Of a stretch of 64,000 nucleotides of DNA, positions 35,567 to 64,000 are shown piece after piece. Location of the stretch: contig OY970340.1 of the NCBI GenBank assembly GCA_963717465.1, forward strand, positions 1,600,001 through 1,664,000, read 5' to 3'. Under the pieces are notes generated by a model, which had not been told where the DNA came from, did not search any database, and was given only the letters and a program-made list of their open reading frames with translations. Numbering within the stretch: position 1 is the stretch's first letter; every line of letters begins with the position of its first letter. Made by a program: the position numbers and the translations under genes. This DNA is from Candidatus Bathyarchaeota archaeon. GTDB taxonomy: Archaea > Thermoproteota > Bathyarchaeia > Bathyarchaeales > Bathycorpusculaceae.

Positions 35567-35576
35567 GAGAAATAAA

Positions 35577-42406: not shown

Positions 42407-42419
42407 AAGGAGATAAAGA

Positions 42420-42965: not shown

Positions 42966-43263
42966 TATACGCCAAAATGCCACATGCGTCAGCATCAATT
43001 TTTATTTGGGCTTAGCATCCTAGAAAACACAATTCAAACTCCATTCATTTCCTTCTTTTCAATCTGCGAAAAATATAATTTGAATTGCTGCGATTTTTGC
43101 TTTTGTTGAATTTTCTGGAAAAAAGCATCGGTTTCGCCAGCTCAAGCTTTTTCAGCTGAAAAGAGTAAGCGAGCCGCACCGATTTTATATTGATTTGTTG
43201 TTGCAGTTATGCGACAACTTATGTTAATAGCTTTGTTTCAATGGTTTTAATTTGTAAATTGAG

Positions 43264-45069: not shown

Positions 45070-47469
45070 TCATTCTTTGGAGGATATTGGTTGAACTTCT
45101 TGTTTTGCGTTGATCTTTTGCATGAGGTTTTTTCTGACGTCTTCTTTTAGTGGTCCCATTTTCGAAATTCTATTGTTGAATACTTCAAAGACGTTTATTA
45201 TTTTGTTGTATTCTGGGAGCGTAGTCGAATACGATATTATCCGCATCGGTTCGATATTGTAAGCGCTTAAATCTTTTTTCAACTGGTTGGTATATTCCCG
45301 CAAGGCGTCTTCGCTGAACACGCCGCCATGATCTTCAAACATTATAACACCGTCAGCTCCATAAGCAAAAGCGTGCAACAAATGCTTCAAGCCTATACGT
45401 CCTGTACTGGGAACTCTTATTATTTTGACGTTTGCTGGGTAAGTTGCTCGGCTTTGTCCTGCTAAATCTGCAGCTCCATAGGCGATTTCTTTTTCAAGAA
45501 ACGCTACTAGCTTTGGTGTCATGCTGTAATCGCTGACACTGTGAATTTGAGCCATTAACTGTTCTTCAGTTGAATTATTGAGGTTGATTGCTTCTTTTGG
45601 ACACTTTGGCACGCAGATTCCGCATCCAATGCACGAAATAGAATTGACGGTTATGGCTTTCGATGACTTTTCAATCGCTGAGACTGGGCATACTTTTATG
45701 CATATTTCGCAGCTGTCACATTTCTTCGGATCTATGTATGCCACTTCTGGGGAGATTGAGATTTCACCTTTGCCCAAAAACGTAGCTACTCTTGACGCAA
45801 CTGCCGACGATTCTAAGGTTGTCTCTCTGATATCTTTTGGACTTACAGCGCACCCGGCGATGAATATTCCTTCTCGTTGACTATCAACTGGTTTTAGCTT
45901 GTAGTGCTTTTCTACGAGGAACTCGTCTGATCCAATCTGAATTCCAAGTTTTTTAGCTAATTCCTGAGCACCTGAAGCTGGAGTAATTCCGAGAACTAGC
46001 ACAACTAAATCGAAAACTCCTTCAATGGGGCATCCGACAAGGGTATCCTCTGCTTTTACTAATAAATCGCCGCTCTTTAATGGTAAAATTTCGGCTACAC
46101 GCCCTCTAACAAATTTTACGTTATGCTCTCTGGCTTTAGCGTAAAACTCTTCGTATCCCTTTCCATCAGCTCTTATATCAGTGTAGAAAATCCATGGTTC
46201 AGCGTCTGGCACTACTTTTTGAACCAACATTGCTTGTTTAATTGAAGCCATGCAGCCAATCTTACAGCAGTGCTCCACGCCGCCAAGCTCTTTATTCGTC
46301 ATTCGGCTGCCTACGCAAAGGACAAAAGCAACTTTCTTTGCGACTTTCTTATCTGAAGGCCTTTTCATCTCCTGACCTATAAGTCGTTCAAGCTGCAAGT
46401 TGGTTATTACATCTGGATTTAAGCCGAACTTGTATTCCCCAAATTTCTTTGCATCAACAAGTTCAAAGCCTGTTGAAGAAATTACAGAACCAACATCAAG
46501 TTCAATATTTTCTTCCTTTTGGTTAAAATCAATGGCTTTGCCTTTGCAGAATTTCTCGCAGAGTCTGCAAACTCCTTTTGTTAAATATAGACAATGCTCT
46601 TTATCGATTACATACGTCTTTGGGACTGCTTGCTTAAAAGGTGTATAAATGGCTTTTCGAGTTGACAAATTAGCATCAAATTCGCTTGGTACATTGACTG
46701 GGCAAACCTTTTCGCATTCGCCGCATGCGGTACAATTGGCGGCATTAACAAATCTTGGGCTTTTCTTGATTAAAGCTCGGTAGTTTCCTGGAGATCCCTC
46801 AACGGCTTGTACTTCTGCCATTGGAATAATTTTGATGTTAGGATGTTGCGCAACGCTTACCATTTTTGGCGTCAATATGCATTGTGAGCAGTCCAAGGTT
46901 GGGAAAGTTTTGCTTAGTTGAGCCATGTGTCCGCCTATGCTTGGACTTCGCTCCACTAAGTATACTTGATAACCTTTATCTGCAATCTCTATCGAAGTGG
47001 TAATGCCTGCAATTCCGCCTCCAATGACAAGAGTGTCTTTTTTCACTGGAATTGCCTTGGCAGTTAAGGGTTCCAAGTAGCGAGCTCTCGATACTGCGCT
47101 GCGAATTATGTCGATGGCTTTAGAGGTTGCTTCGTCTTTGTTTCCGTGAACCCAACTGCATTGTTCTCTGATATTTGCCATTTCGAGCAAGTAAGGGTTT
47201 AAACCTGCTGCTTCTACGACACGTCTAAATGTGTCCAGATGCATTCGCGGCGAGCAGGATGCTACAACGATTCTGTTTAATCCGTTTTCCTTAATGCCTT
47301 TTTTGATCATTTCTTGCCCTGGGTCACTGCATACGTATTCGTATTTTTCTACGACTTTTACGCCGTCAAGTTTTGAAACAGCTTCTTTTACCTTGGCAAC
47401 GTCAACTGTGTCGCTTATGTTTCCTCCACAGTGGCAAATATAAACTCCGATCTTTGCTTTTTCAGTCAA
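45070..47469 (-). CDS. hdrA: Heterodisulfide reductase subunit A fused to an MvhD-like C-terminal domain
   Basis: GVYICHCG.NI, ASCSPRMH, NIREQCSWVH, IGGGIAG, KTFPTLDCSQC, ferredoxin motifs, CVGSR...CCKIGC, DIRA.GKGYEEFY; MvhD-like tail (YGAADLAG...YP.NVKIIRV...GADGV). Confidence 0.95.
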   Translation of the reverse strand: MTEKAKIGVYICHCGGNISDTVDVAKVKEAVSKLDGVKVVEKYEYVCSDPGQEMIKKGIKENGLNRIVVASCSPRMHLDTFRRVVEAAGLNPYLLEMANIREQCSWVHGNKDEATSKAIDIIRSAVSRARYLEPLTAKAIPVKKDTLVIGGGIAGITTSIEIADKGYQVYLVERSPSIGGHMAQLSKTFPTLDCSQCILTPKMVSVAQHPNIKIIPMAEVQAVEGSPGNYRALIKKSPRFVNAANCTACGECEKVCPVNVPSEFDANLSTRKAIYTPFKQAVPKTYVIDKEHCLYLTKGVCRLCEKFCKGKAIDFNQKEENIELDVGSVISSTGFELVDAKKFGEYKFGLNPDVITNLQLERLIGQEMKRPSDKKVAKKVAFVLCVGSRMTNKELGGVEHCCKIGCMASIKQAMLVQKVVPDAEPWIFYTDIRADGKGYEEFYAKAREHNVKFVRGRVAEILPLKSGDLLVKAEDTLVGCPIEGVFDLVVLVLGITPASGAQELAKKLGIQIGSDEFLVEKHYKLKPVDSQREGIFIAGCAVSPKDIRETTLESSAVASRVATFLGKGEISISPEVAYIDPKKCDSCEICIKVCPVSAIEKSSKAITVNSISCIGCGICVPKCPKEAINLNNSTEEQLMAQIHSVSDYSMTPKLVAFLEKEIAYGAADLAGQSRATYPANVKIIRVPSTGRIGLKHLLHAFAYGADGVIMFEDHGGVFSEDALREYTNQLKKDLSAYNIEPMRIISYSTTLPEYNKIINVFEVFNNRISKMGPLKEDVRKNLMQKINAKQEVQPISSKE

Positions 47470-47484
47470 TTTTCGTTACATCTC

Positions 47485-48372
47485 TTATGCTTTAAGTTTG
47501 TTAACGAGAGTTTGAACTTGGGTTTTATTTTTGTCCAGGCCGATCTCTGCTGGGGTCATACCGAGCGCTAAACCCAAGAGTTGCGTTAGAAAGACTACTG
47601 GTAACTCGTATTTAGTTTTCAACTTTTGATTTATTTCAACTTGTCCGTTATCAAATTGGAGATGACAGAAGGCACATGGTGTGACTACACAATCTGCTCC
47701 AGCACTAAGCATGTTGTCAATCTTTGACCTGGTGAAATCAAGGGCAACATCAATGGCGTCAGATCTCACTCCGCCGCCTGCGCCGCAGCATTGCATTTTA
47801 TCCTTGTAATCAACGCTTTCTGCACCCAATGTTCTAACAAAATCATCGATTATAGTTGGGTTTTCAGCTGAACCGTGTTTTCTCACCGCGCTTGGCTTTA
47901 AAAAGTGGCAACCATAGTGGACTGCAACTTTGATGTTGCTAAGTGGGACTTTTACCTTTTCTTTAATAGCTGAGTAGCCAACATCTTCGTTTAAAACTTC
48001 AATTATGTGTTTTACTTTTGTTGTTCCTTTATATTCTCTATTGACTTCTTTGAAGATATCATTCACCTGATGCTTCAATTCGTCATTTTCCATTAAGAGG
48101 CAGTTAGTCTCCTGAAGTGACCCGTAGCAGCCATTACAGGTAACTGCTATATCCTTATTCATTTGCTCGGCGATAGTAAGGTTTCTTGCACTAATCACAG
48201 CCCATGTTAACATGTCAAAAGAGCCGAAGACTCCTGGAGCAGGGCAGCATGAAGCCCCCTTCATATCCAGTAATTCTATTCCAAAAACTCCAAGTGTTTT
48301 TTTGGTTGCTAATTCAATTCCAGGGTAACGGTTGGGCGCAATACATCCAAGAAAGTAAGCATACTGTTTCAT
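47485..48372 (-). CDS. hdrB: Heterodisulfide reductase subunit B
   Basis: YFLGCIAPNRYPGIE, SCCPAPG, CNGCYGSL, HYGCH, CCGAGGG and CAFCHLQFD motifs. Confidence 0.96.
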   Translation of the reverse strand: MKQYAYFLGCIAPNRYPGIELATKKTLGVFGIELLDMKGASCCPAPGVFGSFDMLTWAVISARNLTIAEQMNKDIAVTCNGCYGSLQETNCLLMENDELKHQVNDIFKEVNREYKGTTKVKHIIEVLNEDVGYSAIKEKVKVPLSNIKVAVHYGCHFLKPSAVRKHGSAENPTIIDDFVRTLGAESVDYKDKMQCCGAGGGVRSDAIDVALDFTRSKIDNMLSAGADCVVTPCAFCHLQFDNGQVEINQKLKTKYELPVVFLTQLLGLALGMTPAEIGLDKNKTQVQTLVNKLKA

Positions 48373-48950
48373 TTTTTAACCTCTCCCTTAACTGCTTTTT
48401 CTGCAACGAGAACCTTAAATCCTGTTTTTTCAAGTAACTTGTTTATTTCTTTAAGTCCCTCAGGATCACTGAGAGTAGTTGGCGGAACCTCTGATAGTCC
48501 CATGTTTTTTCTAACTGCTTTCATTTCATCATTAATAGGCACGGCATGCCCACTCGCCATGAAAGCTTTGGCGATTTTTCTATGTGATTCTTTTATGTTG
48601 CCATTTTTCACGGCCATGTTTCTGAGAATTCTAACTATGTCAGTAGTGTGAATGCCTCGGGGGCACCTTTCTTGACAGGTATAACAAGTAGTGCATTTCC
48701 ACAAATCATCACTCGAAAGAACTTTATCTTTTAATCCTGTCGAAGTCTCTTCAAAAATTTTTCTAATTCGCCATGAAGTTCGTCTTCCAGAGGGGCAGCC
48801 TCCGACACACCTTCCGCATTGAAGGCATTGTCTAAGTTTTTCTATTTCTTCCTTGTTATAGAATTTTGAACCAGCATCTATAACTTCATTGCGAAAATTA
48901 AATGATGCGTCTTGAATAACTTCTTTCTTTGGAGCCATCCTTATCCCCAT
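48369..48950 (-). CDS. hdrC: Heterodisulfide reductase subunit C
   Basis: CLQCGRCVGGCPS, LWKCTTCYTCQERCPR and GHAVPI motifs. Confidence 0.95.
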   Translation of the reverse strand: MGIRMAPKKEVIQDASFNFRNEVIDAGSKFYNKEEIEKLRQCLQCGRCVGGCPSGRRTSWRIRKIFEETSTGLKDKVLSSDDLWKCTTCYTCQERCPRGIHTTDIVRILRNMAVKNGNIKESHRKIAKAFMASGHAVPINDEMKAVRKNMGLSEVPPTTLSDPEGLKEINKLLEKTGFKVLVAEKAVKGEVKK

Positions 48951-49196
48951 GCTCTTTTCTTAGCCAACTCTACGCTGCTTAGTTTTGAATAAACATTGAC
49001 CCGTGAATTTAAACATTTTTACCTCACCGAATTCATTTAAAATGTTAAAGTCTGCTCAGTTTTATAATGAAAGTTAACTGTTGCATGTACCTTGAGGTGC
49101 ATTATAATGGCAAGCCGATAAGAAATTAACATGACAAGACATAAATAAGCTCAATCGCTTTTTAGTTTCTTAAAAAATAGGAGTGCTACAACTATA

Positions 49197-50222: not shown

Positions 50223-50680
50223 ATTCAAAGGCATGCAGCTTAAACAGCCCTCTCTTTTATTTTAGCGGTATGTAACTGCTCAGAAATGTTTATAATAAAT
50301 TTTCGCAAATTTCGTAATTTTCTAACCCTTTCTCAACATTTTTGCCAGCATGTAGTGTGTATTATTCGTCAATAAACGAAATACATACCTTTCCATGCAC
50401 GTTTAGTGTTTTGGCACTCTATAAGGTAGGTCCGTGAGCGTCGCGCAGCCTTTCGGCAGTGCGCGCTAAATTGCGTCTTGTTAAGTTCAATAGTTGCTCA
50501 AAGAGTTTATTATAACCTTGAAGGATGTATTCAATGACTTCTCCTTTATCATTAAAGACAAGCTCACAGACTTGAACGTCTACATTAAGCATTCTAAAAG
50601 TTTAAGACAATTATCAAAACTATTTTGGAAGATATCTTGAACGATTTGTTTTTCTTCCATAAATCCCAATAATTAATTAT

Positions 50681-50722
50681 TTCTGATTAGGTACTTTATT
50701 AATTCTGATTAGGTATTTTATT
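50681..50722 (+). repeat. Two-copy tandem repeat (22-bp period)
   Basis: TTCTGATTAGGTACTTTATT-aa-TTCTGATTAGGTATTTTATT. Confidence 0.8.
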
Positions 50723-51165
50723 TTTTAGGTTTAATCTAATTAACATGACAAAACCACAAGCAGAGATGGCTTGAATTGACCTTGTTTTAGTCCAAGCGAA
50801 TGCAAAAACTGGCAGGAAGAAGAGGTGAAGCATTCCACTTTGGATTAAATGTCAATTCAACCAGCCTCATATTTTTGGATTGGGTTTAGTGCGCACTCCA
50901 AATCAATTGTCTTTTGCGTTATGAAAATATCGTAAGCTGCTTTTACGCATTGATTGGCTGCTTCAAAAATATTTTGATTTGAACTATGATTAAATGGTTC
51001 TGTAGGTATTAATCCCTAAATATGTCTTGGGAGAAATGAGTCTTGAAATCGACATTATTGGATTTTGACCTTTTTGGTTTAAGTCGGTAGGCCTAGCGCT
51101 GCTACAATATATTTAATTAATGTTTACTTAAAGGCTTAAATATCAGTAAAATTTCCAAAGCATTT

Positions 51166-52215
51166 ATGACAACTCCATATGATCGATTGATTAATGTTTT
51201 GAGTGGTAAAAAAGCTGAAGTTGATCGACTTCCCGTTATAAACCCTGTCTCCACTTACACATATGATTCTATGAAAGCATATGACGCCTATTGGCCAGCT
51301 GCCCATAGAGATCCTGAAAAAATGGCAAAGCTAGCCGCAGGGCTCCATAGACTTGCAGGCTTAGGTAACGTGACAGTTCCATTTGAATTGACCTTCGAGG
51401 CTGAGATTCTCGGTGCCCCAGTGCAGTTTTTCGAAGACAAGATAAAATGGCCCACTGTTAAGGGTTTTATTGCTCATGAAGTTTCTGACCTTAAATTTCC
51501 CAAGGATATATCAACGGCTGGAAGAATACCAGTTGTTACTAATGCTATTAAAATATTAAAAAGGGAATTCGAAGGCAAAGTCCCAATAATTGCGTACATA
51601 AATTGTCCATTCACCAGCATCAGTAGCTACTTAGTTGAACCAGTCGAATTCCTGAAATCTCTAAGACGTGAACCCGAGAAGGTTCGCGAATTCTACAAAG
51701 CATCCTACCCATTTTATGGTGAAATTGCAAACGCGTTTAAGGAAGCCGGCGCCGACATAATCACATATAGGGAAGAAGGTGTCTCACTTGACAACATCTC
51801 AATCAAGGATTTCGACGAATATGTTAAGCCATATCTCACTAAACTGATTGGTCTCACAAAGTCGCCGAAAATTCTCCACACCTGCGGTTTATGCATAAGC
51901 CGTGAAAAGGAAATTATTGGAAGGATGATAGAATGCGGTGCCGATGCAATTTCCATTGAGGAAAGGACACCAATGAAAGCAGCAAGAGAATTCGCCGACA
52001 AGGCTAAACCAGGTTATCCTATATGCGGAAATGTTGCTCCTTTTTCGGTTATACATAATGGTCCTATTGAAAGAATCAGATTAGCCGTTAAAAAAGCAAT
52101 TGATGAAGGAGTGGATATAGTATCACCTGGCTGCGACTTTTACTTGGAGACCCCGACTGAGCATGTGAAGGCTTTCGTCAATGCCGCTATTGAGTTTGGT
52201 ACACAAACAAGGTGA
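51166..52215 (+). CDS. MtaA/CmuA-family methyltransferase, paralog 2
   Basis: YWPAAH.DP.KMAKL, VPFELTFEAE, LHTCG and PGCDF motifs. Confidence 0.85.
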   Translation: MTTPYDRLINVLSGKKAEVDRLPVINPVSTYTYDSMKAYDAYWPAAHRDPEKMAKLAAGLHRLAGLGNVTVPFELTFEAEILGAPVQFFEDKIKWPTVKGFIAHEVSDLKFPKDISTAGRIPVVTNAIKILKREFEGKVPIIAYINCPFTSISSYLVEPVEFLKSLRREPEKVREFYKASYPFYGEIANAFKEAGADIITYREEGVSLDNISIKDFDEYVKPYLTKLIGLTKSPKILHTCGLCISREKEIIGRMIECGADAISIEERTPMKAAREFADKAKPGYPICGNVAPFSVIHNGPIERIRLAVKKAIDEGVDIVSPGCDFYLETPTEHVKAFVNAAIEFGTQTR

Positions 52216-52628
52216 GGAAGTCTGTCAACTTCGTTAGGGAAATCTAAAGGTAAATTTTCGAGGAAACGTTAAGGATTATAATCGGCAAACCTCTTCTTTC
52301 GGCACTTGCCAATAAGCTTGGCATGTCGAAAAGTCTTTATTTTTTCTTTACATTTTTTATATGTGTACATTACTTAGAAAAGCATGTGCTCTGTAACTTA
52401 CCTTTCAACTATTATCCTTATTGTGAAAGCGTTCGCCATGAAGAAAGAGTTGATGAATTAATCGAAAAATAAACAGTCACTTTAAGAATTTTTTACAACA
52501 TTAAGAGATAAAGGTAATACTTAACGAATTTGACAGAAATCGGCAGGTTATGGGCAAATAAAGAAGAAGTTTACAAAAAAGTAAAAATATAGGTGTTTTT
52601 TGCTAAAAAACAACAGGTGAACAAAGAC

Positions 52629-53589
52629 ATGTTTAAATTTAAATCTCAACAAAAAATTTTCAAGATAGGAAATGTGAGTATAGGTGGACAGCCGGGAGAA
52701 CTCCCGAAGGTGCTGTTCGGAACCATTTTTTATGGCAAACATAAAATCGTAGAGGACCAGAAAAAAGGCATTTTCGACAGGAAAAAGGCAGAGGAACTGA
52801 TAAATAAACAAGAAGAGCTTTCTGATCTTACTGGTAACCCTTGCGGGTTAGATGTTGTATGCATCTCGCTTGAGTCAGCTTGTAAGTTCATCGATTTTGT
52901 TGCAGAGACAACTGATTGTCCGATTTCAGCAGATATTTGGACGCCCGAGATTAAAATTAAAGTTCTAAATCATATTGCTGAGGTAGGTCTTTCAGATCGA
53001 ATCATTTACAACAGTGTGATGTCAGTTCCGTTGCCCAGCGAAGATGAACTTAATGCTATTAGAGAGTCAAAGGTTAAGTCAGCTGTAATTCTATGTTACA
53101 ACACAAAGGATCGTACGACCAAAGGTGTTTTGTCTTTGCTCAGGGGCACTGAAGAGCAAAAGGGCTTGCTGGACATAGCTCAGGGAGCAGGAATAGAAAA
53201 GCCATTAGTTGACGCAACCATCTTTACATACATTCCAAGCATAGGCGTTGGAGCTAGAGCATGTTACTTAGTAAAAGATGAATTCGGTCTTCCAGTGGGC
53301 GGTTCACCTGGAAACGCAACTACTGTTTGGAAAGAACCAAAAAAGTGGGGACAAGATATCTTTAAAGCGTGTGAAGCAGCGGCAGAAGTTGTACCTTTAG
53401 CCTTAGGCGCAGATTACCTGTTTTATGGACCAGTTGAGTCGGCCCCTTGGGTATTTCCAGCCTGCGCTGGAGTTGACGCAATGATTGCCAGCAGCAGCTA
53501 AAACTGAATTCGGAATAAAAACCTTGACGAAAGAGCATCCACTGTATAAATTATTCCCCGAAATCGTTAAAAAGTTAGACATTGAATAA
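52629..53589 (+). CDS. mtrH: MtrH-like pterin:corrinoid methyltransferase (frameshift near 53490)
   Basis: MFKFKSQQKIFKIG...IGGQPGELP..L.GTIFY..HKIV.D..KG.FD, GADYLFYGPVE; shifted tail AAKTEFGIKTLTKEHPLYKLF. Confidence 0.85.
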
Positions 53590-53609
53590 GAATAAAGAGA
53601 TGATGCAAT

Positions 53610-54650
53610 ATGGTTGAATTGACTTCTTATGACAGAGTCATGGCTGTTTTAAACGGCAAGAAAAGTTCTGTTGATAGGCTTCCTTGCATAAACTCTGTTA
53701 GTGTAAGCACGATTGATTTCATGAAGTCTTATGATGCTTATTGGCCAGCCGCACACAAAGACCCTGTGAAAATGGCCAAACTTGGCTCGGCGGCTCACAG
53801 ATTATGTGGTCTTGATAACGTGACAGTACCATTTTGTATGACAGTTGAAGCGGAGGCACTTGGAGCGGTGATTAATTTTCACGAAGACACAATAAAGTGG
53901 CCCTCAATTAAAGAATTTCACGTGAACGAGCCTTCAGATCTTAAATTTCCCAATGACGTATCAACAGCTGGAAGAGTTCCAGTCGTCATTGAAGCAATCA
54001 AAATATTGAAAAAAGAATTTGAAGGCAAAGTTCCCGTAAATGCTTACATAACACCACCATTCACGAGCATCAGCAGTTACCTAGTGGACAGCGTTACTTT
54101 CTTGAAGTGGCTGAGAGTTTCGCCAGAAAAGGTTCATCAATTCGTAAAAAGCGCTAACGATTTTTACGCAAAAATAGCAAAATTATACGAAGAAGCTGGG
54201 GCTGACATAATTACTCTTCATGAGATGGGTGCTTCTACAGATAACATATCACCGAGACATTTTGATCAATTCGTTAAGCCTTATATCGTTGACTTGATTA
54301 AGCCTTTGAAGGCAAAAACGATTTTGAACATTTGCGGAGATGCTAATATGATTGTTGACAAAATGGTTGGAACTGGTGCAAGTGCCATATCAGTAGATGA
54401 GAGAACAAAAATTAGCGGAGTTAGAAATGCAGTGGATAAGATTAAGCCAGGTTATCCTGTCGCCGGTAATTGCCCATCCTACACAGTGATACACTTAGGT
54501 ACTGTCGAAAAAATAAGGGACTATGTCAAGCAAAACATCCAAGATGGCGTTGATATTGTGGCTCCCGGTTGTGATTTTTGGCTAGAGACTTCTGTTGATC
54601 ATGTGAAGGCTTTTATTGATGCAGCCAAAGAATTTGGGAAACTACAATGA
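53610..54650 (+). CDS. MtaA/CmuA-family methyltransferase, paralog 3
   Basis: Close paralog of 51166; VPFCMTVEAE, LNICG (His replaced by Asn) and PGCDF motifs. Confidence 0.85.
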   Translation: MVELTSYDRVMAVLNGKKSSVDRLPCINSVSVSTIDFMKSYDAYWPAAHKDPVKMAKLGSAAHRLCGLDNVTVPFCMTVEAEALGAVINFHEDTIKWPSIKEFHVNEPSDLKFPNDVSTAGRVPVVIEAIKILKKEFEGKVPVNAYITPPFTSISSYLVDSVTFLKWLRVSPEKVHQFVKSANDFYAKIAKLYEEAGADIITLHEMGASTDNISPRHFDQFVKPYIVDLIKPLKAKTILNICGDANMIVDKMVGTGASAISVDERTKISGVRNAVDKIKPGYPVAGNCPSYTVIHLGTVEKIRDYVKQNIQDGVDIVAPGCDFWLETSVDHVKAFIDAAKEFGKLQ

Positions 54651-54740
54651 TAAAGAGGAATACTTTACAAAAAAGTATTTATTCCTGCAACAAAACTCAC
54701 GAAACTTAAAGAACTAATAATTTAATGGAGAGAAAAAATA

Positions 54741-55427
54741 ATGAGTGAAACTGAAATATTTAAGAAACTTTCTGATGCAGTTGATACTGGAAACGTTGAG
54801 ATGGCTAAAGAGGCTGCTAACGAGGCTATCGCTAAGGGCGTTCCAGCTTTGAAGGCGATTTTGAATGGGCTTGCAGAAGGAATGAGAATTGTTGGCGTAA
54901 AATACGAAGAAAAGGAATATTTCTTGCCTGACATGCTTGCGGCAGCAGATGCAATGTACGCTGGGATAGAACTTTTGACTCCTCATATTCCTGCGGCGGA
55001 TAGAAAATCAAAAGGAAAGATAGTTATGGGTGTTGTAGAAGGCGATGTTCATGACATTGGAAAAAACATTGTAAAAATAATGTTGACGGCTTCTGGATAT
55101 GAAATCGTGGACTTGGGCAAAGATGTGCCAACAGGCGAATTTATTAATAAAGCTAAGAGTGAAGGAGCGCAAGTAATAGCGATGTCAACGCTTATGACGC
55201 CAACGCTCATGTCTATGAAAACAGTAGAAGAAAAACTGAAAGAATCAGGAATGAAAGACACTGTTAAAACTATCATAGGCGGCGGCTCAGTAAGCGAGGA
55301 ATGGAAGAATAAAATAGGTTCAGATGCTTATGGCGCGGATTCTTCAGAAGCTGTCAGCAAAGTTAAGCAGTTGCTAGATAGTATCATGACCGCTGTAGAC
55401 GTAATGAAAAAAGATCAGAAACAATAA
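54741..55427 (+). CDS. Methyltransferase-cognate corrinoid protein (MtaC/MttC-like)
   Basis: Cap domain (GL..GM..VG.KYE..EYFLP); B12 motif GDVHDIGKN, DLGKDVP and IIGG. Confidence 0.93.
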   Translation: MSETEIFKKLSDAVDTGNVEMAKEAANEAIAKGVPALKAILNGLAEGMRIVGVKYEEKEYFLPDMLAAADAMYAGIELLTPHIPAADRKSKGKIVMGVVEGDVHDIGKNIVKIMLTASGYEIVDLGKDVPTGEFINKAKSEGAQVIAMSTLMTPTLMSMKTVEEKLKESGMKDTVKTIIGGGSVSEEWKNKIGSDAYGADSSEAVSKVKQLLDSIMTAVDVMKKDQKQ

Positions 55428-55441
55428 GAAGGTAGACTAGT

Positions 55442-57358
55442 TTGGCTCCTGAAGAAATTGAGATCGTATTTCAGCCCTATGGCAAACGAACAAAGTTTCC
55501 ATCGGGCATCAACCTTTTAGATGCCGCCAAAGGTTTAGGCATAGATTTATCTTCACTATGCTCAGGAAAAGGCACTTGCGGAAAATGCAAAATCAAGATT
55601 CAAAAAGGAGCAGAGGGTTTAAGTCCCCTCACAGAAAAGGAATCAAAGCGCCTATCCCAAGAGGAACTTGACACATCCCACAGATTAGCATGCCAAGCTA
55701 CAATAACAAACTCTGCAATAATCTATGTTCCACTAACAAGCAGAGTGGGAGTTCAGAGACTACAAACTGACGGGCTTGATGTACCAGTAAAACCCAACCC
55801 CTTCGTGAGAAAATACTATTTAGAAATGACTCAACCATCACTTCATGACATGAGGTCTGATGAAGACAGAGTTTTTGATGCATTAAACAAGGAGTACGGT
55901 CTTTCTAACGTAAAATTTGACTTTGACACCGCAAAAACTCTTCCAATAAACCTTCGAAAAGAAGATTGCAAAGCAACCGCTGTTGTCTGGAACGACAAAG
56001 AAATTATTGCTCTCGAACCTGGAAATACCTCCGATAGATGCTTTGGACTTGCCGTGGATATCGGATCTACAAAGCTAGCAGGATTCTTGATGGATCTTAA
56101 AACCGGTCAAGTTGTTGCCGTCGCAGCTAGAATGAACCCCCAAATTCCGCTGGGCGAAGATGTCATGTCAAGGATAACCTATGCTATGATGGGTGAGTGG
56201 AAAGCCATCCAGGAACTCCAAACAGCTGTTGTCTCAGGAATTAACGAAATAACTGAGGAATGCTGCAAAAAGGCAAATGTGAAAATTGAAGAAATATACG
56301 AAACCAACTTCGTCGGTAACACAGCAATGCAACTTTGTTTCCTCGGTTTCTGGTCTAGATATGTAGGCTTCTCACCTTACCCGCCAGTACTTCGAAGAGG
56401 TGTTGATGTACGCGCTGCAAGGTTAGGCTTAAAGGCTCACCCAAATGCGAATACGCACTATCTCCCGGTCATTGGAGGTTTCGTGGGAGCAGATAGTATT
56501 GCATGCATCTTAGCATCAAAACTTCTAGAAGAAGATGAAATCAAAATGATTATCGACGTAGGCACAAACACTGAAATCATGTGCGGAAATAAAGACCTAT
56601 GCATGGCTGACTCTTGTGCATCTGGTCCAGCCTTTGAAGGAATGGAAATAAAATTCGGCATGAGAGCAGCAACAGGAGCTATCGAAAAAATTAGCATTGA
56701 TCCTGATACATTGGACCTTAACTTCAGAACTATTGGAAATGCTCCTGCTGTTGGCATAACTGGATCCGCACTCGTCGACGCTCCAGCTGAGCTTCTGAAG
56801 TCTGGTATAATAAACTTGAGGGGCAACTTTGTTCCAGAAATGATGAAGAGAACTGATAGATTAAGAAAGGGATCTAGCGGCTGGGAATTTGTGATAGCGA
56901 GAAAGAATGAAACAAGCATCGGCACAGATGTCGTTTTAACCTTAGCTGATGTTAGAGCACTCCAGCAGGCAAAAGCTGCAATGCACGTTGGAGCAGACAT
57001 TCTGATGAAAAGGATGAACATTCCAATAGAGAAACTGGATAAACTGGTGATTGCTGGGGCCTTCGGAAACTATATCGACGCCGAAAACGCAAGGACAATC
57101 GGCATGTATCCTGAAGTGCCGCTTGAAAAGATCGCTTTCGTTGGAAACCTTGCTGGCACAGGTTCTAGACTTGCTTTGATTTCAAAAGAAGAAAGAGCGA
57201 AAGCTGAAGAAATAAGCAAAAAGGTAAAGTACTATGAACTTGCAGTGGATCCTGAATTCCAGACAGAATATGCGAAGTCACTGTACTTCCCGCACTCTGA
57301 CCTGGATAAGTATCCAAGCACTAAAGAATTACTGAAGAAGTTAGGTCGCATTCCTTAA
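55442..57358 (+). CDS. ATP-dependent reductive activator of corrinoid proteins (RACo/DUF4445, ASKHA fold)
   Basis: N-terminal 2Fe-2S (CSGKGTCGKC...RLACQ); DIGSTK, NPQ..G.DVMSRI, GFVGAD, DVGTNTE, ASGPAFEG and AGAFG motifs. Confidence 0.92.
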   Translation: MAPEEIEIVFQPYGKRTKFPSGINLLDAAKGLGIDLSSLCSGKGTCGKCKIKIQKGAEGLSPLTEKESKRLSQEELDTSHRLACQATITNSAIIYVPLTSRVGVQRLQTDGLDVPVKPNPFVRKYYLEMTQPSLHDMRSDEDRVFDALNKEYGLSNVKFDFDTAKTLPINLRKEDCKATAVVWNDKEIIALEPGNTSDRCFGLAVDIGSTKLAGFLMDLKTGQVVAVAARMNPQIPLGEDVMSRITYAMMGEWKAIQELQTAVVSGINEITEECCKKANVKIEEIYETNFVGNTAMQLCFLGFWSRYVGFSPYPPVLRRGVDVRAARLGLKAHPNANTHYLPVIGGFVGADSIACILASKLLEEDEIKMIIDVGTNTEIMCGNKDLCMADSCASGPAFEGMEIKFGMRAATGAIEKISIDPDTLDLNFRTIGNAPAVGITGSALVDAPAELLKSGIINLRGNFVPEMMKRTDRLRKGSSGWEFVIARKNETSIGTDVVLTLADVRALQQAKAAMHVGADILMKRMNIPIEKLDKLVIAGAFGNYIDAENARTIGMYPEVPLEKIAFVGNLAGTGSRLALISKEERAKAEEISKKVKYYELAVDPEFQTEYAKSLYFPHSDLDKYPSTKELLKKLGRIP

Positions 57359-57700
57359 CTTCACAATTCCTCAATTTTTTTATTTAAATGCGAATTACTA
57401 GATTATCAGTTGCATCTATTAAGGCACTAACAATGTAATATTGTTTCAAACCATTTTCTGCGGACCGTGCGTAGAACTGATGTTTCCTTGGGTTTTTTGA
57501 TCTGCAGTTTGGCTCGGAACGCTCGCTTTCTGTTTCTTTCATTATTAGGTTAATGAGTGGGAGACCAGGTTTTGCAAAGCAGAAATGTACCTACAGTCAA
57601 ATCAATCAACAAGTCGTTCAAACTTACTCATACTCTTCGTGTGCTGTCCTTAAGAGTGCGATGGCTGCTAGCGCTATAAATTTATTATAATAATTAATTC

Positions 57701-58531
57701 TTATTTTTTTCTTACTTGCTCAAGTTGTTGTATTCTTGTATTCACATCGACAGCTTTGCCCCATAACCCCTCAAAAAATACTCGCAACACTCGAATAAAC
57801 ACTTCGCTATCAGTCCAAAAAGCAACCATATCTTCGCCCATCTTAGATTCCCAAACTAGCATCGCACTTTTATCATCTCCTATTAAAAGTCTATATGTTA
57901 TATTTTCCTCCAAAACTAAACAACGCGATTCTGCATTAATACCTAATTCAATAGTCGTAGCCATAAATCGGTTAACTTTTTCGACTTCTTCACGTTTAAA
58001 ATTGATTAAAGATCTAATTTTCACATTCTTAAAATTGCCTTGTACTATCTGTTCAGAAGATAGTCCCTTAAAATTTGAGACCATCCATAATATCTCTTTC
58101 TTTGCATCAAGAACCACCTGTACGCCTTTTGCAGATATAATTTCTTGCCGTTTAAGAATTAGAAATTTTTCATTATCCGCTATTGGGTAATCAGATGTTA
58201 TTGACTTAAATTGAGCTATGATCTCCTTTTTATCAGCTTCTAAGCAATGAGTTTGTTCTTTCATTGCTTTAATATTCAAGTCTAGAACTTTTTCAATTGG
58301 AACAGCAATATATGCCATTGGGCGGTCTATTGTTGATTCTACGATGCCCTTACTTTGTAAACTCTTTAGAGCACGATATGTATCCCCTTTATGGAGTCTT
58401 AGTCTGTTTATAATTTCCTTAGCATTGGTAGGGACTTGATTTTTTGCGAGGTAAAGGAAAACTTCTTGCTCTTTTTTAGTCAGCCCCAGTTTTGTAAGAA
58501 TCTCTGATAACTGATTGTTGTATCCATTCAT
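57701..58531 (-). CDS. TrmB-family transcriptional regulator
   Basis: LGLTKKEQEVFLYL...YRALKSLQSKGIV...RP..Y.AV N-terminal wHTH; C-terminal effector-domain-like region. Confidence 0.85.
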   Translation of the reverse strand: MNGYNNQLSEILTKLGLTKKEQEVFLYLAKNQVPTNAKEIINRLRLHKGDTYRALKSLQSKGIVESTIDRPMAYIAVPIEKVLDLNIKAMKEQTHCLEADKKEIIAQFKSITSDYPIADNEKFLILKRQEIISAKGVQVVLDAKKEILWMVSNFKGLSSEQIVQGNFKNVKIRSLINFKREEVEKVNRFMATTIELGINAESRCLVLEENITYRLLIGDDKSAMLVWESKMGEDMVAFWTDSEVFIRVLRVFFEGLWGKAVDVNTRIQQLEQVRKK

Positions 58532-58832
58532 CTGTTAATCTTCCATTGATATTTTAGACTGGCTTTGAAAATGAATAAGTACTTCCAAGAAAATAACTTT
58601 CATAGTAATTGATCATAAACCATTAACTAACCTTCACTACCACTAGTCTCAGGGTGTTCGCATTTTCGACTTACCAAATTATATATTTGAATATTTACAT
58701 AAAAGCCTTGTGATGGTGTGATGGTTTAGGGAGGTGTTCTTCATGTACATACTCCAGGTCTCAATACTTGATTCCAACTCCCTAACTAATCTCCAATAAA
58801 ATTGTCAGAAATATGGGGGATCATAAGAATAT

Positions 58833-59099
58833 ATGTCTGGGCGTAGGAGGAATATGGTCTCAAAAGCTGCTTTTGATATTCTTCGCCTTCTTTCATTAAA
58901 TGGACGAACAAGATACACTCAAATTTGCTTTGAATTGGCTTTAAGTAAGACTACTGTAAGCATTTGTCTGAAAAAATTGATTGCCGAAGGCTTGGTTAAA
59001 AGCAGAATTAGCATTGCTGGAATCAAAGTTTACTCTAACACGGCTAAAGGTAACAAAGTCTATGAGCGCAAAAAAACAACTGTAGTAATCTTAAGTTGA
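58833..59099 (+). CDS. Small winged-helix (ArsR/MarR-like) protein
   Basis: ILRLL...YTQI...LSKTTVS..LKKL...GLV...Y..T.KG. Confidence 0.7.
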   Translation: MSGRRRNMVSKAAFDILRLLSLNGRTRYTQICFELALSKTTVSICLKKLIAEGLVKSRISIAGIKVYSNTAKGNKVYERKKTTVVILS

Positions 59100-59106
59100 T
59101 GCTGTT

Positions 59107-59283
59107 ATGACTGAGTTTGTAGCGGGTTTAAGTCGTAATAAAACTAAAACTCAGATTTTCACCAAGTATTGTATGCGCTGCGATAAACCGTTCAGGCTAA
59201 ATGATAAAGTTGTAAGTCGCCCACGGAGAAATCAACTCCAAAGATACTATCATAAAGATTGCTATGAAGAAATGTTTGTTTAA
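59107..59283 (+). CDS. 58-aa CxxC...HxxC zinc-finger protein (absent from the ORF track)
   Basis: MTEFVAGLSRNKTKTQIFTKYCMRCDKPFRLNDKVVSRPRRNQLQRYYHKDCYEEMFV*; paralog of 38120-38359. Confidence 0.7.
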   Translation: MTEFVAGLSRNKTKTQIFTKYCMRCDKPFRLNDKVVSRPRRNQLQRYYHKDCYEEMFV

Positions 59284-59294
59284 GCACGCGCAGT

Positions 59295-59849
59295 CTTTTT
59301 GCGTGTTTAGCGGACCGATACAACTAGGCAATTCTCTGTTAAGATAAGGCTCCAAGTTTCCACGTGTCAATGTTATAAAATCGCTAACACGTAAGCCTAA
59401 CGACTTGCCAACTGTAATGACGTATTGTTTGGTTAAATTACCTATATCAGCCATTTTCTTTAAATCATCCCTAGTAAACCGATAGTCTTCGGTTTTACGA
59501 CTTGCCTTGTTGTTTTTTACTTTCTTGTGTTCGTAAAACAATTGGCATGTAAAAGTATGTGAAAAAACTTCTAGGCGCAATGGTTGCGGTTTTTGCGTAC
59601 TTGAATGAAACCCTTGTTTTTTAGCCATTGTTTGAATGACATTATTTTGCGTTCCCAGCTATGTTCGGTATCGGTTTTGCGGTCTGCAAGTATTTGGTCG
59701 CCTGTCATGCCTGTAAATTCCAAAAAATTTAACCAGTTGTAAAATTAACCATCCCTCGTTGCATTTAAACTATCCAACCATTCTGTCGAAGCTTTATCGG
59801 TTGGGTCGATAGTTCTTGGGGTTTTAGAGCGGTAAGCGCCTTTTCTCAA
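59295..59849 (-). pseudogene. Tyrosine recombinase/integrase N-terminal remnant
   Basis: FLEFTGMTGDQILADR core-binding-like region and YRFTRDDLKKM...GKSLGLRVSDFITL (catalytic Arg box). Has an in-frame stop and a frameshift, and is truncated before HxxR/Tyr. Confidence 0.75.
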
Positions 59850-59985
59850 TTAATCTAACCTTCCTACTTGGTTGATTAACTTTTAGCGCCTTGGATTTAG
59901 GCTATTTGTGGATTTAAGGCGAATATGAGACTTTATTTTAAAGCGCGACTTAAAAAAATATGTTGGAAAATTTCGTTTTTTCAGC

Positions 59986-60012
59986 AAAGTTTATAATAAA
60001 AGTTTTATATAG
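59986..60012 (+). promoter_or_regulatory. Putative BRE/TATA promoter of the mcr operon
   Basis: AAAGTTTATAATAAAAGTTTTATATAG, 35-45 bp upstream of the candidate mcrB starts. Confidence 0.5.
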
Positions 60013-60054
60013 TCTGAAAGAATATCATAATAAAACCAAAAGGTCATGATCGGA

Positions 60055-61387
60055 ATGAAGTACAAGGACAAAATAGACCTGTATAGTGAGGAAGGAAAAC
60101 TACTTGAGTCTAATGTACCTCTTGAGGCCATTAGTCCAATTTTAAACCCTGCGATTAAGAAAATAATTCATACATTGATGAGATCCGTCGCTGTTAACTT
60201 AGAAGGCATAGAGAAATCTTTGGCAAACGGAACAGTTGGCGGTGAAGGATGTAAGATTCCTGGAAGAGAACTACAACTCGACATTGTGAAAAATGCCAAT
60301 GTCATTGCAGACAAGGTTTTGGAAAAAGTCAGAGCTAAGAAAGGCGATGATGCTGAAGTTCAAATTCTAGCTGGCGGAAAACAACTCCTAGTTAAATCTC
60401 CAACTCTGAGACTCGAAGCTAGTGCTGAATACACAACATCTTTAACTAACATTGCATCAGCTGTGACGCAAACGATCATTGATGTATTCAACGTATCAAT
60501 GTTCGATGCGGATATGGTTAAAGCAGCTGTTTGGGGCAGGTACCCACAATCAATTAATCTAATGGGCAGTAATCTTGCCTCTGTCCTAGGTGTGCCACAG
60601 GCAAACGAGGGCTTAGGTTACGCTCTAAGAAACATATCCGCGGCTTATGTAGCAATGATATGCAAGAAGAACGCTTTAAACACAGCAGCCTTATCCTCAA
60701 TACTTGAACAGATCAGCAGCGTTCGAAATGGGAGACGCAATCGGCGACTTTGAAAGAATGCAACTTCTCGGACTCGCATTCCAAGGATTAAACGCTAACA
60801 ACCTCGTTTACGACCTTGTTAAGGAAAACGGTAAAACCGGAACAGTCGGCACTGTTATTACCAGCCTCGTAAAACGTGCACTCAAAGACAAAGTTATACG
60901 ACCTCTTGAAAAGAACGAATCAGGTTTTGTTACATATACTACTGACGACATGGCGCTCTGGAACGCATACGCAGGAGCTGGATTATTAGCAGCCACAATG
61001 ATAAGCCAAGGCGCAATGAGAGCTATGCAAGGAGTTTCAGCAGTAGTAGTATATTTCAACGACATGCTCGAACACGAAACAGGATTGCCCTCAGTCGAGT
61101 TCGGCAAATCCATGGGTTCAGGAGTTGAATTCTCATTCTTCAGCCACTCAATATACGGCGGTGGAAGCCCAGTCGTATTCCACGGAAACCACATCGTGAC
61201 AAGACACAGCAAAGGATTCTCCATACCTCCAGTCGCAGCAGCAATCGCACTCGACGCAGGAACAGTTTACTATACACCAGAAAAAGTCGCTGGAATAATT
61301 AGCGAAGTTTTCAGCACAATACCAGAACTAAGAGAGCCAATCGCTCATGTAGCAAAAGCTGCTGCAGAAGTGAAGGCCTCTATATAG
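60055..61387 (+). CDS. mcrB: Methyl-coenzyme M reductase beta subunit (+1 frameshift near 60711)
   Basis: [42 protein letters not shown], then [28 protein letters not shown] and [11 protein letters not shown]...[11 protein letters not shown]. Confidence 0.97.
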
Positions 61388-61399
61388 GCGAAAAAATCG

Positions 61400-61847
61400 G
61401 TGCCAAACACACCCCCTCAATTTTCTTTTAAAAATATTTCTGAAAATAACGAAGAAATCGAAATTTTTCCGAATCGTCTATTAAGCCTTGCAACTTTAGA
61501 AAAAATATTAAATAAAATTTCTAAAATTGAAGAAGTTATCTCTGTAACCTTGCAGGGTCAGCGTCTTCCTAAAGAAGAAGCTACTTGCGCTTGTGAAGCT
61601 GAAAACCAAGTTGAGAGCAGAAAGATTCTTGTGCAAAATCAGGAAATTGAAATTCACATCATGACTGGTCGAATAATTCTCGAAGTGCCAAGCCAAGAAA
61701 CTGAAAAAGTTATCAAAAAAATTAAGAAAATATCTGATCAACTGTCTTCCATTTGGCTATAGTATTAGAGTTGGCAAATTCCTTAAAAGAAACGTGTCAC
61801 TAGCTGATTATAAGAGAGAATGGTTTCAAAATATCTCCAAAAAATAA
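61400..61847 (+). CDS. mcrD: McrD (frameshift near 61746)
   Basis: IEIFPNRLL...T.EKILN, GQRLP and GRII motifs; shifted tail LPFGYSIRVGKFLKRNVSLADY. Confidence 0.88.
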
Positions 61848-61875
61848 TTCGTATCTTTAAGATTCTTAGGAGTCG

Positions 61876-62545
61876 ATGATAAAGTTGCCTGGTGGTTCTT
61901 GTCGCAGAATGGAGAAGCCTTGCATAGGCAAAAAGACACAGTTTATCGATTGCCGAGAGGTAATGGGTTTAGGTTTAGGTGGAGGATTAGCGCAACGTGG
62001 AACTCTCGCTGAAGCGTCTCCTGCAGATGTTATTGTTATAGCTATGTCACCTGGAAGAAGGCATATTACTAAACCCGTTTGCGAAATTACCTCTGCATTA
62101 AGAGAAGCTGGTATCAGTGTGAGTGTTTTGATTTTAGATGCTGGTTCAAGTGTACCACCTGATGCACCTTCCTCAAGACAAGGGTACGGACCAATCTTTG
62201 GTTTGTCTCCAGAAGAATTTGCAAAGAATTTCAAAGCATAAACTTGCAATAATTCATTTGGGAAATGTTAGAGCTCACATTGTTTATAAAGCTCGTGCAA
62301 TTTTGAGAATGGTCAATATTCCTGCGGTTGTTATTTGTCAATGTCCAGTTGATTTTGAGGATTTTGCTGAAGTCGGTGTTAGAACGCGCTTTGTAAAACC
62401 GAATGCGACTGAGGAGCAGACTCTTGGTGAGATTGTTGAAATTGTTACTGACGTGGTAAGGGGTCAAACATGCCCTCGAAGTAAACTCGATGAGATAAGT
62501 GGAAAAGTCAAGTCATCACTAAACTTATTAAGGAAAACAAAATAA
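61876..62545 (+). CDS. mcrC: McrC (frameshift near 62224)
   Basis: [22 protein letters not shown] and [16 protein letters not shown], then [25 protein letters not shown] and VVRGQTCP. Confidence 0.93.
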
Positions 62546-62596
62546 TAGTTGAAAAGAAACCATACAATAATTGAGACAAAACGGAGTGTATAGCAT

Positions 62597-63379
62597 TTGG
62601 AAAAATCAGATTATAAGCCTCAATATACCCCTGGCGTCTCCGATGTAGCTAAGAACAGAAGAAACTACATGGACCCAAAGCACAAATTGGAGAAGCTTCG
62701 CTCAATTTCTGACGAATCTCTGATAAGGTTGCTTGGGCATCGCGAGCCTGGAGAAGCCTATAAATCAGTTCACCCACCCCTTGAAGAAATGGGCGAACCT
62801 AAATGCACGATAAGGAAACTTGTTGAACCCACACCTGGAGCCAAAGCTGGTGACAGAATCACATTCATACAATTCACCGATTCTGTGTACTTCTCGCCTT
62901 TGGCACCCTACAGCAGGTGCTGGATGTACATGTCAAGATACAGAGGTGTAGACCCTGGCGCTCTATCAGGAAGATGCCCCCTTGAAATGAGAGAAAGAGA
63001 TTTAGAAGCAGTTTCAAAGGAGCTAATTGAAACAGAAGTTTTCGACCCAGCAAGAACCGCAGTTAGAGGCGCAACAGTACACGGCCACTCTTTGAGACTG
63101 GACGAGAACGGAATGATGTTTGACTTATTAAGACGCTCTGTTTACGACAAGAAGAAGCAAGAAATCACATATGTTAAAGATCAGTTGGGAGTACCGTTAG
63201 ACACGCCAATTGCACTTGGAAAACCGTTACCAGAAGAAGAATTAAGGAAAAGAACAACAATCTTCAGGGCAGACGGAACATCCATACGAAAAGATCCAGA
63301 GCTACTAAAATATATTCAAAGAATTCACACACTAAGAACAATCGCTGGTCATAACCCGGAAAAAGCCAAAGGACTATAA
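62597..63379 (+). CDS. mcrG: Methyl-coenzyme M reductase gamma subunit
   Basis: NRR..MDP..KLEKLR, LLGHR.PGE.YKSVHPPLEE, QFTDS, YRGVDPG.LSGR, RERDLE and RGATVHGHSLRLDENG.MFD motifs. Confidence 0.98.
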   Translation: MEKSDYKPQYTPGVSDVAKNRRNYMDPKHKLEKLRSISDESLIRLLGHREPGEAYKSVHPPLEEMGEPKCTIRKLVEPTPGAKAGDRITFIQFTDSVYFSPLAPYSRCWMYMSRYRGVDPGALSGRCPLEMRERDLEAVSKELIETEVFDPARTAVRGATVHGHSLRLDENGMMFDLLRRSVYDKKKQEITYVKDQLGVPLDTPIALGKPLPEEELRKRTTIFRADGTSIRKDPELLKYIQRIHTLRTIAGHNPEKAKGL

Positions 63380-63405
63380 AAAGAGGTTAAAATGAGGTAA
63401 TAATT

Positions 63406-64000
63406 ATGGTTAAGAAAGAAAAAATGTTTTTAGAAGAACTTGAGAAGAAATTCAAGGAAGATCCTACTAAAAAGACTACTACCTACTACCATTTTGGTGG
63501 CTGGAAGCAGTCAAAGAGAAAGCAAGAATTCTACAGAGCTAGCCAAAAGATCGAGAAAGAGAGAGGCATACCGATGTACTCTCCGGATACTTCACTTAGG
63601 TGGTGTACCTGTAGGTCAAAGACTTCTTATGCCCTATAAGATCTCTGGGACAGACGTTTATTGTGAAGGAGACGACTTACATTTCATCAACAACGCAGCC
63701 ATGCAGCAAATGTGGGACGACATAAGAAGGACAGTAATCGTAGGCTTAGATGCCCCGCACAAAGTATTAGAAAGCAGATTAGGCAAAGAAGTAACACCAG
63801 AAACAATAAGCGAATACATGGAAATACTCAACCACACAATGCCTGGAGCAGCAGTAGTTCAAGAACACATGGTTGAAACACACCCCGCACTAGTGTCAGA
63901 TTGCTATGTAAAACTATTCACAGGCAACGATGAGCTTGCAGATGCCATAGACAAAAGATTCGTAATTAACATAAACAAATTATTCCCCAAAGAAAATGCT
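63406..64000 (+). CDS. mcrA: Methyl-coenzyme M reductase alpha subunit (5' part; +1 frameshift near 63589; runs off the window)
   Basis: [12 protein letters not shown]...RGIPMY.PD, then my translation [52 protein letters not shown]...[11 protein letters not shown]...[37 protein letters not shown]. Confidence 0.97.

Follow-up and report, generated by a model that had tools for sequence, protein, structure and literature searches.

A chromosomal island in a Bathyarchaeia genome that probably encodes a complete canonical methyl-coenzyme M reductase system for hydrogen-dependent methyl reduction

The 64,000-nucleotide stretch analysed here (the window; positions 1,600,001 to 1,664,000 of contig OY970340.1, assembly GCA_963717465.1, Candidatus Bathyarchaeota archaeon) contains part of a chromosomal island of at least 42 kb, which extends at least 23 kb past the end of the window. 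This island probably gives one Bathyarchaeia species a complete canonical methyl-coenzyme M reductase (Mcr) system for methyl-reducing, H2-dependent methane formation, a reading to which we assign a probability of roughly 0.65. From the protein families present we infer a flow in which a methyl group would be taken up by a corrinoid protein, held reduced by a reductive activator of corrinoid proteins (RACo), and would then be transferred by MtaA onto coenzyme M (CoM). McrABG would convert methyl-CoM and coenzyme B (CoB) to methane, and HdrABC would recycle CoM-S-S-CoB, which the hdrCBA-mvhDGA genes of the genome would do with H2. McrC, McrD, AtwA and the methanogenesis marker proteins Mmp2/3/5/6/7/8/15/17 would assemble or activate Mcr, with F430 supplied by a nearby cfbABCDE operon.

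The source genome (G000) is a single closed contig of 3,053,889 bp with a completeness of 88% and a contamination of 1.01%, in which the window corresponds to G000:C1:1600001-1664000. Coordinates follow the window numbering unless marked G000, and values above 64000 lie past the window end. Gene identities were taken from a listing of open reading frames (ORFs) together with Pfam and NCBIfam profile scans (Table 1). These scans recovered in place the gene content proposed by the initial annotation, namely hdrCBA, three MtaA/CmuA proteins, an MtrH-like protein, a corrinoid protein, RACo, two regulators and five mcr genes, and the presence of secY/rpl15, tRNA-Lys and cdvB-cdvA-cdvB-cdvC on the same contig was likewise confirmed.

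As judged from alignment scores and trees, the encoded enzyme is a canonical Mcr and not similar to the alkyl-CoM reductases (Acr). The Pfam families MCR_alpha_N, MCR_alpha, MCR_beta_N, MCR_beta and MCR_gamma are all matched, and G000 contains one mcr copy. In a comparison with 17 MCR chains, a 418-residue piece of McrA scored 537–595 bits against solved methanogen MCRs and 455–515 bits against two chains from anaerobic methanotrophic archaea, whereas the same piece reached 322 bits against the ethyl-CoM reductase 7b1s. Seven of the eight McrA positions checked, which we take to be active-site or modified residues, are conserved (Gln147, His257, Arg271, Tyr333, Gln400, Gly445 and Asp450, M. 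marburgensis numbering), and the position of M. marburgensis Cys452 is occupied by Met. McrA is 90% identical to the relative P0001, 76% to that of an Archaeoglobi metagenome-assembled genome (MAG), 72% to those of Methanosuratincola and Korarchaeum and 68% to that of Nezhaarchaeales, such that the highest identities to named organisms are with group II members. The best relative of McrG in a scan of genome contigs is 75% identical. In quick maximum-likelihood trees of McrA, which were rooted on Helarchaeota Acr, carry only Shimodaira–Hasegawa-like approximate likelihood ratio (SH-aLRT) supports and include about 17 out-of-frame residues at the end of the G000 row, the G000 protein pairs with P0001 (support 100) and then with P0004 (92), and the branch to the Acr outgroup has a support of 100. 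The G000-P0001-P0004 clade joins euryarchaeal group I and the two group II clades at a polytomy. Thus, the view of the initial annotation that this Mcr would lie outside the Acr clades agrees with both the scores and the trees.

Two other genomes among 400 sampled from the class encode McrG (G061 and G228), and each carries mcrBGA with mmp genes nearby, in the regions G061:C1:232001-272000 and G228:C90; the G228 McrA belongs to the same 90% cluster as a protein named Candidatus Bathyarchaeota. The McrA of G061 and G228 groups with P0022 beside Nezhaarchaeales, apart from that of G000, and a tree forcing G061, G228 and P0022 together with the G000 clade is 91 log-likelihood units worse (approximately unbiased (AU) test, p = 2.9e-6), the constraint group having been named after the tree was seen. 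On these trees, two or more separate lineages of canonical Mcr occur in Bathyarchaeia, with the G000 McrA forming a clade of its own. The operon order is also distinct, being mcrBDCGA in G000 but BGA in Methanomethylicia loci and in G061.

The mcr genes contain five frame breaks that the initial annotation overlooked. Each is of the +1 type (frame n to n+1, one extra base), with one break in mcrB, one in mcrD, one in mcrC and two in mcrA. The pieces of mcrB match Pfam MCR_beta_N at positions 1–182 and MCR_beta at positions 1–36 plus 31–249, covering both domains end to end. The first piece of mcrD matches MCR_D at positions 1–95 of 142, with the remainder in the next frame, whereas the Pfam MCR_C match of mcrC is weak, its pieces being 48% and 35% identical to the McrC of G061. 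The three pieces of McrA align to residues 3–59, 61–441 and 442–550 of M. marburgensis McrA.

We consider these breaks most likely to be insertion errors of the assembly rather than signs of decay, because 40 of 43 frame changes in housekeeping genes of this genome are of the same type and because, at three of the five sites, the extra base is missing from contigs of related strains. For the first of these results, 400 kb of the closed genome G003, from the same genus, supplied 307 translated ORFs, which were searched by tblastn against G000. Matches spread over two or more frames were seen for 38 of the 174 orthologous proteins; chaining of collinear pieces left 43 frame changes over 53,387 aligned residues, or about one per 3.7 kb. 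The frame changes are clustered by region (10 in one 20-kb stretch, four in one 793-residue protein), and patches as dense as that of the mcr genes also occur in housekeeping genes. Within the window, the genes for the RuBisCO large subunit (7376-8663) and an amino-acid kinase (17411-18823) are likewise split, and the rate bears on any call of a split gene or pseudogene in this assembly. The second result comes from Logan contigs of two DNA runs (X1 and X2; word shares 0.09 and 0.05), both peat metagenomes from one study. The contigs represent related strains, none being at least 99% alike and most being less than 95% alike, and they lack one base at 60713 (mcrB), 61744 (mcrD) and 63588/63589 (mcrA), the omission at 60713 being seen in contigs of both runs; the alignment rows listed cover these three of the five sites, the mcrC site being absent from them and the second mcrA site falling beyond the compared stretch. 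Parts of 44–64 kb have no cover in these contigs. Programmed +1 frameshifting was rejected as an explanation, the breaks affecting about one-sixth of conserved genes at non-conserved sites.

Genes expected to support an active Mcr are found both in the continuation of the island and elsewhere on the chromosome. A search for cfb, com and atwA genes, as proposed by the initial annotation, recovered cfbABCDE, cysteate synthase with ComDE, and atwA. NCBIfam matches lie over the cut-off for mmp3, 5, 6, 7, 8, 15, 17 and A2 and under it for mmp2 (275 of 365 bits), and likewise over it for cfbA, D and E and under it for cfbB and C. Reading frames are intact for mmp3 (513 residues), atwA (531 residues) and cfbA-E. 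MtrA (PF04208) has no match in G000, a genome that is 88% complete, although the control was found in two methanogens. A complex-I-like membrane module with three antiporter subunits is also present. Further copies of individual genes are seen at other loci: a second HdrA at G000 799,653-802,013, 65% identical to the island HdrA, has 12 stops if read in one frame, and second copies of mmp15 and mmp5 at G000 2,614,847-2,616,516 are 50–56% identical. We note that several HdrA homologs of G000 and its congeners contain exactly two in-frame TGA codons, whereas the island HdrA contains none.

Between mtaA and mcrB lies a 9.7-kb methyltransferase module that varies among relatives. One X1 contig joins position 50275 to 59981, skipping 9705 bases, and thus places mcrB directly after mtaA. 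The direct repeat at the module ends (D7; 50280-50299 and 59981-60000) has 18 of 20 bases alike and a spacing of 9701, and the 890-bp gap at 50276-51165 contains no ORF of note. The 143-residue ORF at the right end may be an integrase-like fragment, a weak assignment. The MtaA encoded at 49197, to the left of the module, scores 219 bits against the solved MtaA 4ay7 and contains the HxC...C motif, which we take to be the zinc site of CoM methylases. For the MtaA/CmuA paralogs of the module, a search of solved structures returned 4ay7 as the only relative (177 bits), a score that does not separate MT1 from MT2. Only one of the three MtaA proteins resembles a plain CoM methylase, and the other two sit in a module that looks like the Mto system. 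The MtrH-like protein of the module (52593) has at most 46% identity to proteins of congeners, and a second copy of the MtrH-like, corrinoid protein and RACo genes at G000 750,317-753,984 is 76–83% identical to that of the island (83% for the MtrH-like protein, at 750.3 kb).

The Mto operon of Methermicoccus shengliensis passes methoxyl groups to tetrahydromethanopterin (H4MPT) according to Kurth et al. 2021 (PMC8630106). Compared by its description, it has the same parts, comprising two MtaA/CmuA-related methyltransferases, an MtrH-like transferase, a corrinoid protein and a 2Fe-2S RACo-type activator. The G000 module differs in its location inside an mtaA-mcr operon and in one paralog that keeps the HxC...C motif; because of this paralog, the module may link methyl-H4MPT to CoM without Mtr, and it may instead, or in addition, feed in methoxyl-derived methyl groups. 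Bathyarchaeia are known O-demethylators, with bacterial-type systems described in 31 of 297 MAGs (PMC10989822). It is conceivable, but in our estimate improbable, that a peat Bathyarchaeon is a true methanogen with its own Mcr lineage that turns lignin-derived methoxyl groups into methane. If so, the Mto-like module with its two copies would mark a methoxydotrophic methanogen outside Euryarchaeota, and the O-demethylation known in the class would be tied to peat methane emission.

The island is not common to the genus or the family. MCR_gamma was found in none of 24 genus genomes and none of 16 order genomes, Mmp3 in none of 40 genus genomes, CfbD over the cut-off in none of 40 congeners, AtwA in none of 119 other genus genomes and McrG in none of 331 other family genomes, such that the marker genes lie outside the known mcr-bearing lineages, as the initial annotation had supposed. 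The best match of the island HdrA in 39 of 40 congeners is only 43–51% identical, indicating that the island copy is not the genus's own. On the left side, the last block that is syntenic with congeners (41621..43581) encodes proteins with 73–83% identity in five of five congeners. In G003, G014 and G016, the genes that follow this block correspond to G000 2.284-2.288 Mb, and synteny therefore ends after 43.6 kb, just left of the island. The gene order of G000 is rearranged relative to these three genomes and the right border of the island is not locatable by synteny; LipS2, past the CoM genes, is 42–48% identical to congener copies located elsewhere. With respect to composition, the island is typical of the genome, a uniformity that the initial annotation had proposed to check: its windows fall between the 22nd and 54th percentile of tetranucleotide distance, and their GC content is 0.39–0.41 versus 0.401 for the genome. 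Nor is G000 alone, since relatives of AtwA and McrA with 81–90% identity occur on contigs of 46–196 kb, with P0361 on 196 kb, P0243 on 183 kb and P0001 and P0244 on 46 kb. An island that the rest of the family lacks, yet that is compositionally at home, would represent a separate Mcr lineage that was either acquired long ago or retained in rare cases.

Several observations weigh against methane formation by this system. Four of the five mcr genes cannot be translated as they stand in the deposited record, and five breaks in 5 kb amount to about four times the genome mean, whereas the neighbouring 13 kb of coding sequence (hdr and methyltransferase genes) is free of them. It is in other strains, none of them at least 99% alike, that the extra bases are lacking, and the breaks may be true mutations in the G000 strain. 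The sequencing-run look-up returned no run with the G000 strain itself, leaving no source read across the junctions, and no RNA run with the stretch. Furthermore, MtaB has no match in G000 (MtmB and MtbB were not searched for), matches to the MTTB superfamily are weak (13 at about 10 loci; 11 over the Pfam cut-off, at most 47 bits), and the CoM steps searched were cysteate synthase and ComDE, with CoB synthesis outside the searches. The nearly self-contained route from a methyl donor to CH4 that the initial annotation described is only partly borne out: the island contains no classical substrate methyltransferase, and MtaB was not found in the genome. Were the breaks real, the mcr operon would be a pseudogene, the system would be in the process of being lost and no methane would be formed, in agreement with the concentration of the breaks in mcr and with the lack of a contig representing the strain itself. 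This seems to us distinctly unlikely, however, given that each of the five breaks belongs to the +1 class that prevails in the housekeeping genes and that in-frame stops, deletions and lost residues are not seen. Rather, McrA is covered from residue 3 to 550 with its catalytic residues kept, the accessory genes mmp3, atwA and cfbA-E are intact, and three of the break sites show an intact frame in related populations.

That DNA from a true methanogen was joined to a Bathyarchaeia chromosome during assembly is very improbable. The assembly is error-prone and its junctions lack source reads, the island is unique among 331 family genomes and synteny breaks at its left side, points that favour a chimera. 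However, the typical composition of the island and the occurrence of methanogenesis genes at separate loci amid Bathyarchaeia core genes (cfb, the main island and copies near 0.75, 0.80 and 2.6 Mb) argue against a chimera and also speak against any recent transfer from a donor of different composition. In addition, the contamination is 1.01%, and neither McrA nor AtwA closely matches that of a named methanogen, the best named matches being 76% identical for McrA and 56% for AtwA. A further alternative accepts intact genes and assigns the Mcr to something other than net methane formation, either running in reverse in methane oxidation or serving as a minor electron sink beside the fermentative or acetogenic metabolism typical of the class. 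Such a role would be in line with the many other redox modules in G000 and with the statement of a 2025 preprint that all group II mcr genomes encode other means of energy conservation (10.1101/2025.10.16.682713). We nevertheless think it unlikely, as the gene set resembles that of cultured methyl-reducing methanogens (MtaA beside mcr, Hdr-Mvh, no Mtr) and no feature specific to methane oxidation was seen. Thus, hydrogen-dependent methyl reduction to methane remains our preferred reading.

Methane production by Bathyarchaeia has been debated since 2015, and the first candidates carried alkane-type enzymes. The 'Mcr' of the Bathyarchaeia genomes BA1 and BA2, reported by Evans in 2015, is said to be read now as an alkyl-CoM reductase. 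These enzymes are assigned to group III (PMC10321748, PMC12694404). BA1 and BA2 share with G000 the host class and the co-location of methyltransferase and MtrH-like genes, whereas the G000 enzyme is far from the Acr outgroup. Canonical MCR-based methyl-reducing genes are already known in Thermoproteota, as is one Bathyarchaeia MAG with group II genes: Hou et al. 2023 describe, among 304 MAGs, a single Jinwuousiales MAG (3300028193_21) with a group II mcr cluster (PMC10321748). Like G000, this MAG places a canonical MCR in Bathyarchaeia, in its case by genome-based inference only, but it belongs to a different order. Either G061 or G228, whose McrA is distinct from that of G000, may be this MAG. 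The initial annotation knew of no established canonical methanogenesis in the lineage; a group II MCR MAG from another order of the class had, however, been published, giving the lineage some precedent.

Other close counterparts are the methyl-reducing methanogens of Thermoproteota (Methanosuratincola/Methanomethylicia, Korarchaeia and Methanonezhaarchaeia), which share with G000 the combination of Mcr, AtwA and Mmp proteins with MtaA and HdrABC-MvhADG and without Mtr, and for which the expected physiology is the same H2-dependent methyl reduction. G000 differs from them in sequence (McrA 68–76% and McrG at most 75% identical), in its BDCGA rather than BGA order, in that no MtaB was found in its genome and in belonging to a class without a cultured methanogen. 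A 2025 review regards the role of Bathyarchaeia mcr as unresolved (PMC12694404), the 2025 preprint reports a Bathyarchaeia clade of group II McrA from mesophilic sediments (10.1101/2025.10.16.682713), and mcr in Bathyarchaeia from a pond is mentioned, with no detail, in a 2026 preprint. A phrase search of the literature returned, as judged from its listing, no description of an organism such as this one. What appears to be new, from the genomic evidence, is a canonical methyl-reducing mcr set in an otherwise mcr-free family, one whose McrA forms its own clade and which includes an unusual insert of methyltransferase genes. One closed chromosome here joins Bathyarchaeia core genes with a canonical MCR, its assembly factors, F430 and CoM synthesis, Hdr-Mvh and corrinoid methyltransferases, and the idea of methane-producing Bathyarchaeia thereby becomes directly testable. 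The mcrA clade, with its relatives in peat metagenomes, offers a defined target for enrichment, labelling and transcript studies, and the 119 other species of the genus that lack these genes provide a natural comparison between mcr-bearing and mcr-free sisters.

Table 1. Positions of the island genes, of related loci on the same chromosome and of the flanking markers (window numbering unless marked G000)
Feature	Position	Strand	Evidence or remark
hdrA (fused MvhD-like end)	45070-47469	-	Pfam
hdrB	47485-48372	-	Pfam; NCBIfam 439 bits, over cut-off
hdrC	48369-48950	-	Pfam; NCBIfam 200 bits, over cut-off
MtaA-type methylcobamide:CoM methyltransferase	49197-50222	+	NCBIfam 370 bits
Variable module	50276..59980		Between mtaA and mcrB; imperfect 20-nt direct repeat at both ends
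MtaA/CmuA-family paralog	51166-52215	+	HxC...C motif kept; 34-35% identical to MtaA at 49197
MtrH-like methyl-corrinoid:pterin methyltransferase	52593-53501	+	Pfam MtrH E = 2e-86
MtaA/CmuA-family paralog	53610-54650	+	Asn replaces motif His
Corrinoid (B12-binding) protein	54741-55427	+	Pfam, NCBIfam
RACo-type reductive activator, N-terminal 2Fe-2S domain	55442-57358	+	Pfam, NCBIfam
TrmB-type regulator	57701-58531	-	Pfam
Small winged helix-turn-helix (wHTH) regulator	58833-59099	+	Pfam
ORF of 143 aa, right end of module	59197-59628	-	No Pfam or NCBIfam match
mcrB	60046-61387	+	One extra base near 60713, frame 1 to 2
mcrD	61400-61847	+	One extra base near 61744, frame 2 to 3
mcrC	61876-62545	+	Frame change within 62138-62241, frame 1 to 2
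mcrG	62597-63379	+	Intact; Pfam MCR_gamma E = 4e-122
mcrA	63406-65078 (5' part to 64000 in window)	+	Extra base near 63588; second frame change near 64748
mmp8, mmp7, NifB-like radical-SAM gene, mmp17, mmp15, mmp5, mmp6, mmp3	70.2-77.3 kb		NCBIfam
atwA	77.4-79.0 kb		Followed by mmp2
Cysteate synthase and sulfopyruvate decarboxylase (ComDE)	84.2-86.6 kb		Over cut-off
hemA-hemB-hemL-hemC-cobA/hemD-cfbA-cfbE-cfbD-cfbC-cfbB (F430)	G000 1,566,576-1,577,359		About 23-33 kb before window
hdrC-hdrB-hdrA-mvhD-mvhG-mvhA	G000 1,700,310-1,706,879		About 36 kb after window; several under curated cut-offs
secY	1-1257		Same contig as island
uL15 (rpl15)	1267-1695		Same contig as island
cdvB-cdvA-cdvB-cdvC	33234-36743		Same contig as island
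tRNA-Lys	37911-37988		Same contig as island
Purine-nucleoside phosphorylase, phosphoribosyltransferase, AsnC-type regulator	41621..43581	+	Last block syntenic with congeners

The host is, as judged by its SecY, a member of Bathyarchaeia, in agreement with the initial annotation. The SecY fragment is 73–79% identical to the relatives listed and 75–79% identical to Bathyarchaeia MAGs, and every named archaeal match among them is a Candidatus Bathyarchaeia or Bathyarchaeota MAG; two rows with bacterial bin names among these matches are taken for mis-binned contigs. The presence of Cdv genes is consistent with a host from Thermoproteota. A 202-residue membrane-anchored protein without a family match, encoded at the left edge of the island (44331-44939), consists mostly of Pro-Thr/Ser repeats. 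Further to the left (37911-39630), a DUF5658 gene and a 154-residue C-terminal integrase fragment come after tRNA-Lys, and a 22-nt imperfect direct repeat (38030-38051 and 39609-39630) brackets the stretch, which looks like the remnant of an integrated element. An Rfam scan of 36–64 kb found nothing beyond the tRNA. Near the start of the window (2388-7181), a NiFe hydrogenase is encoded together with NuoE/F/G-like diaphorase subunits, as in the Hox-type soluble hydrogenase, with a large subunit that is closest to VhuA, under the cut-off.

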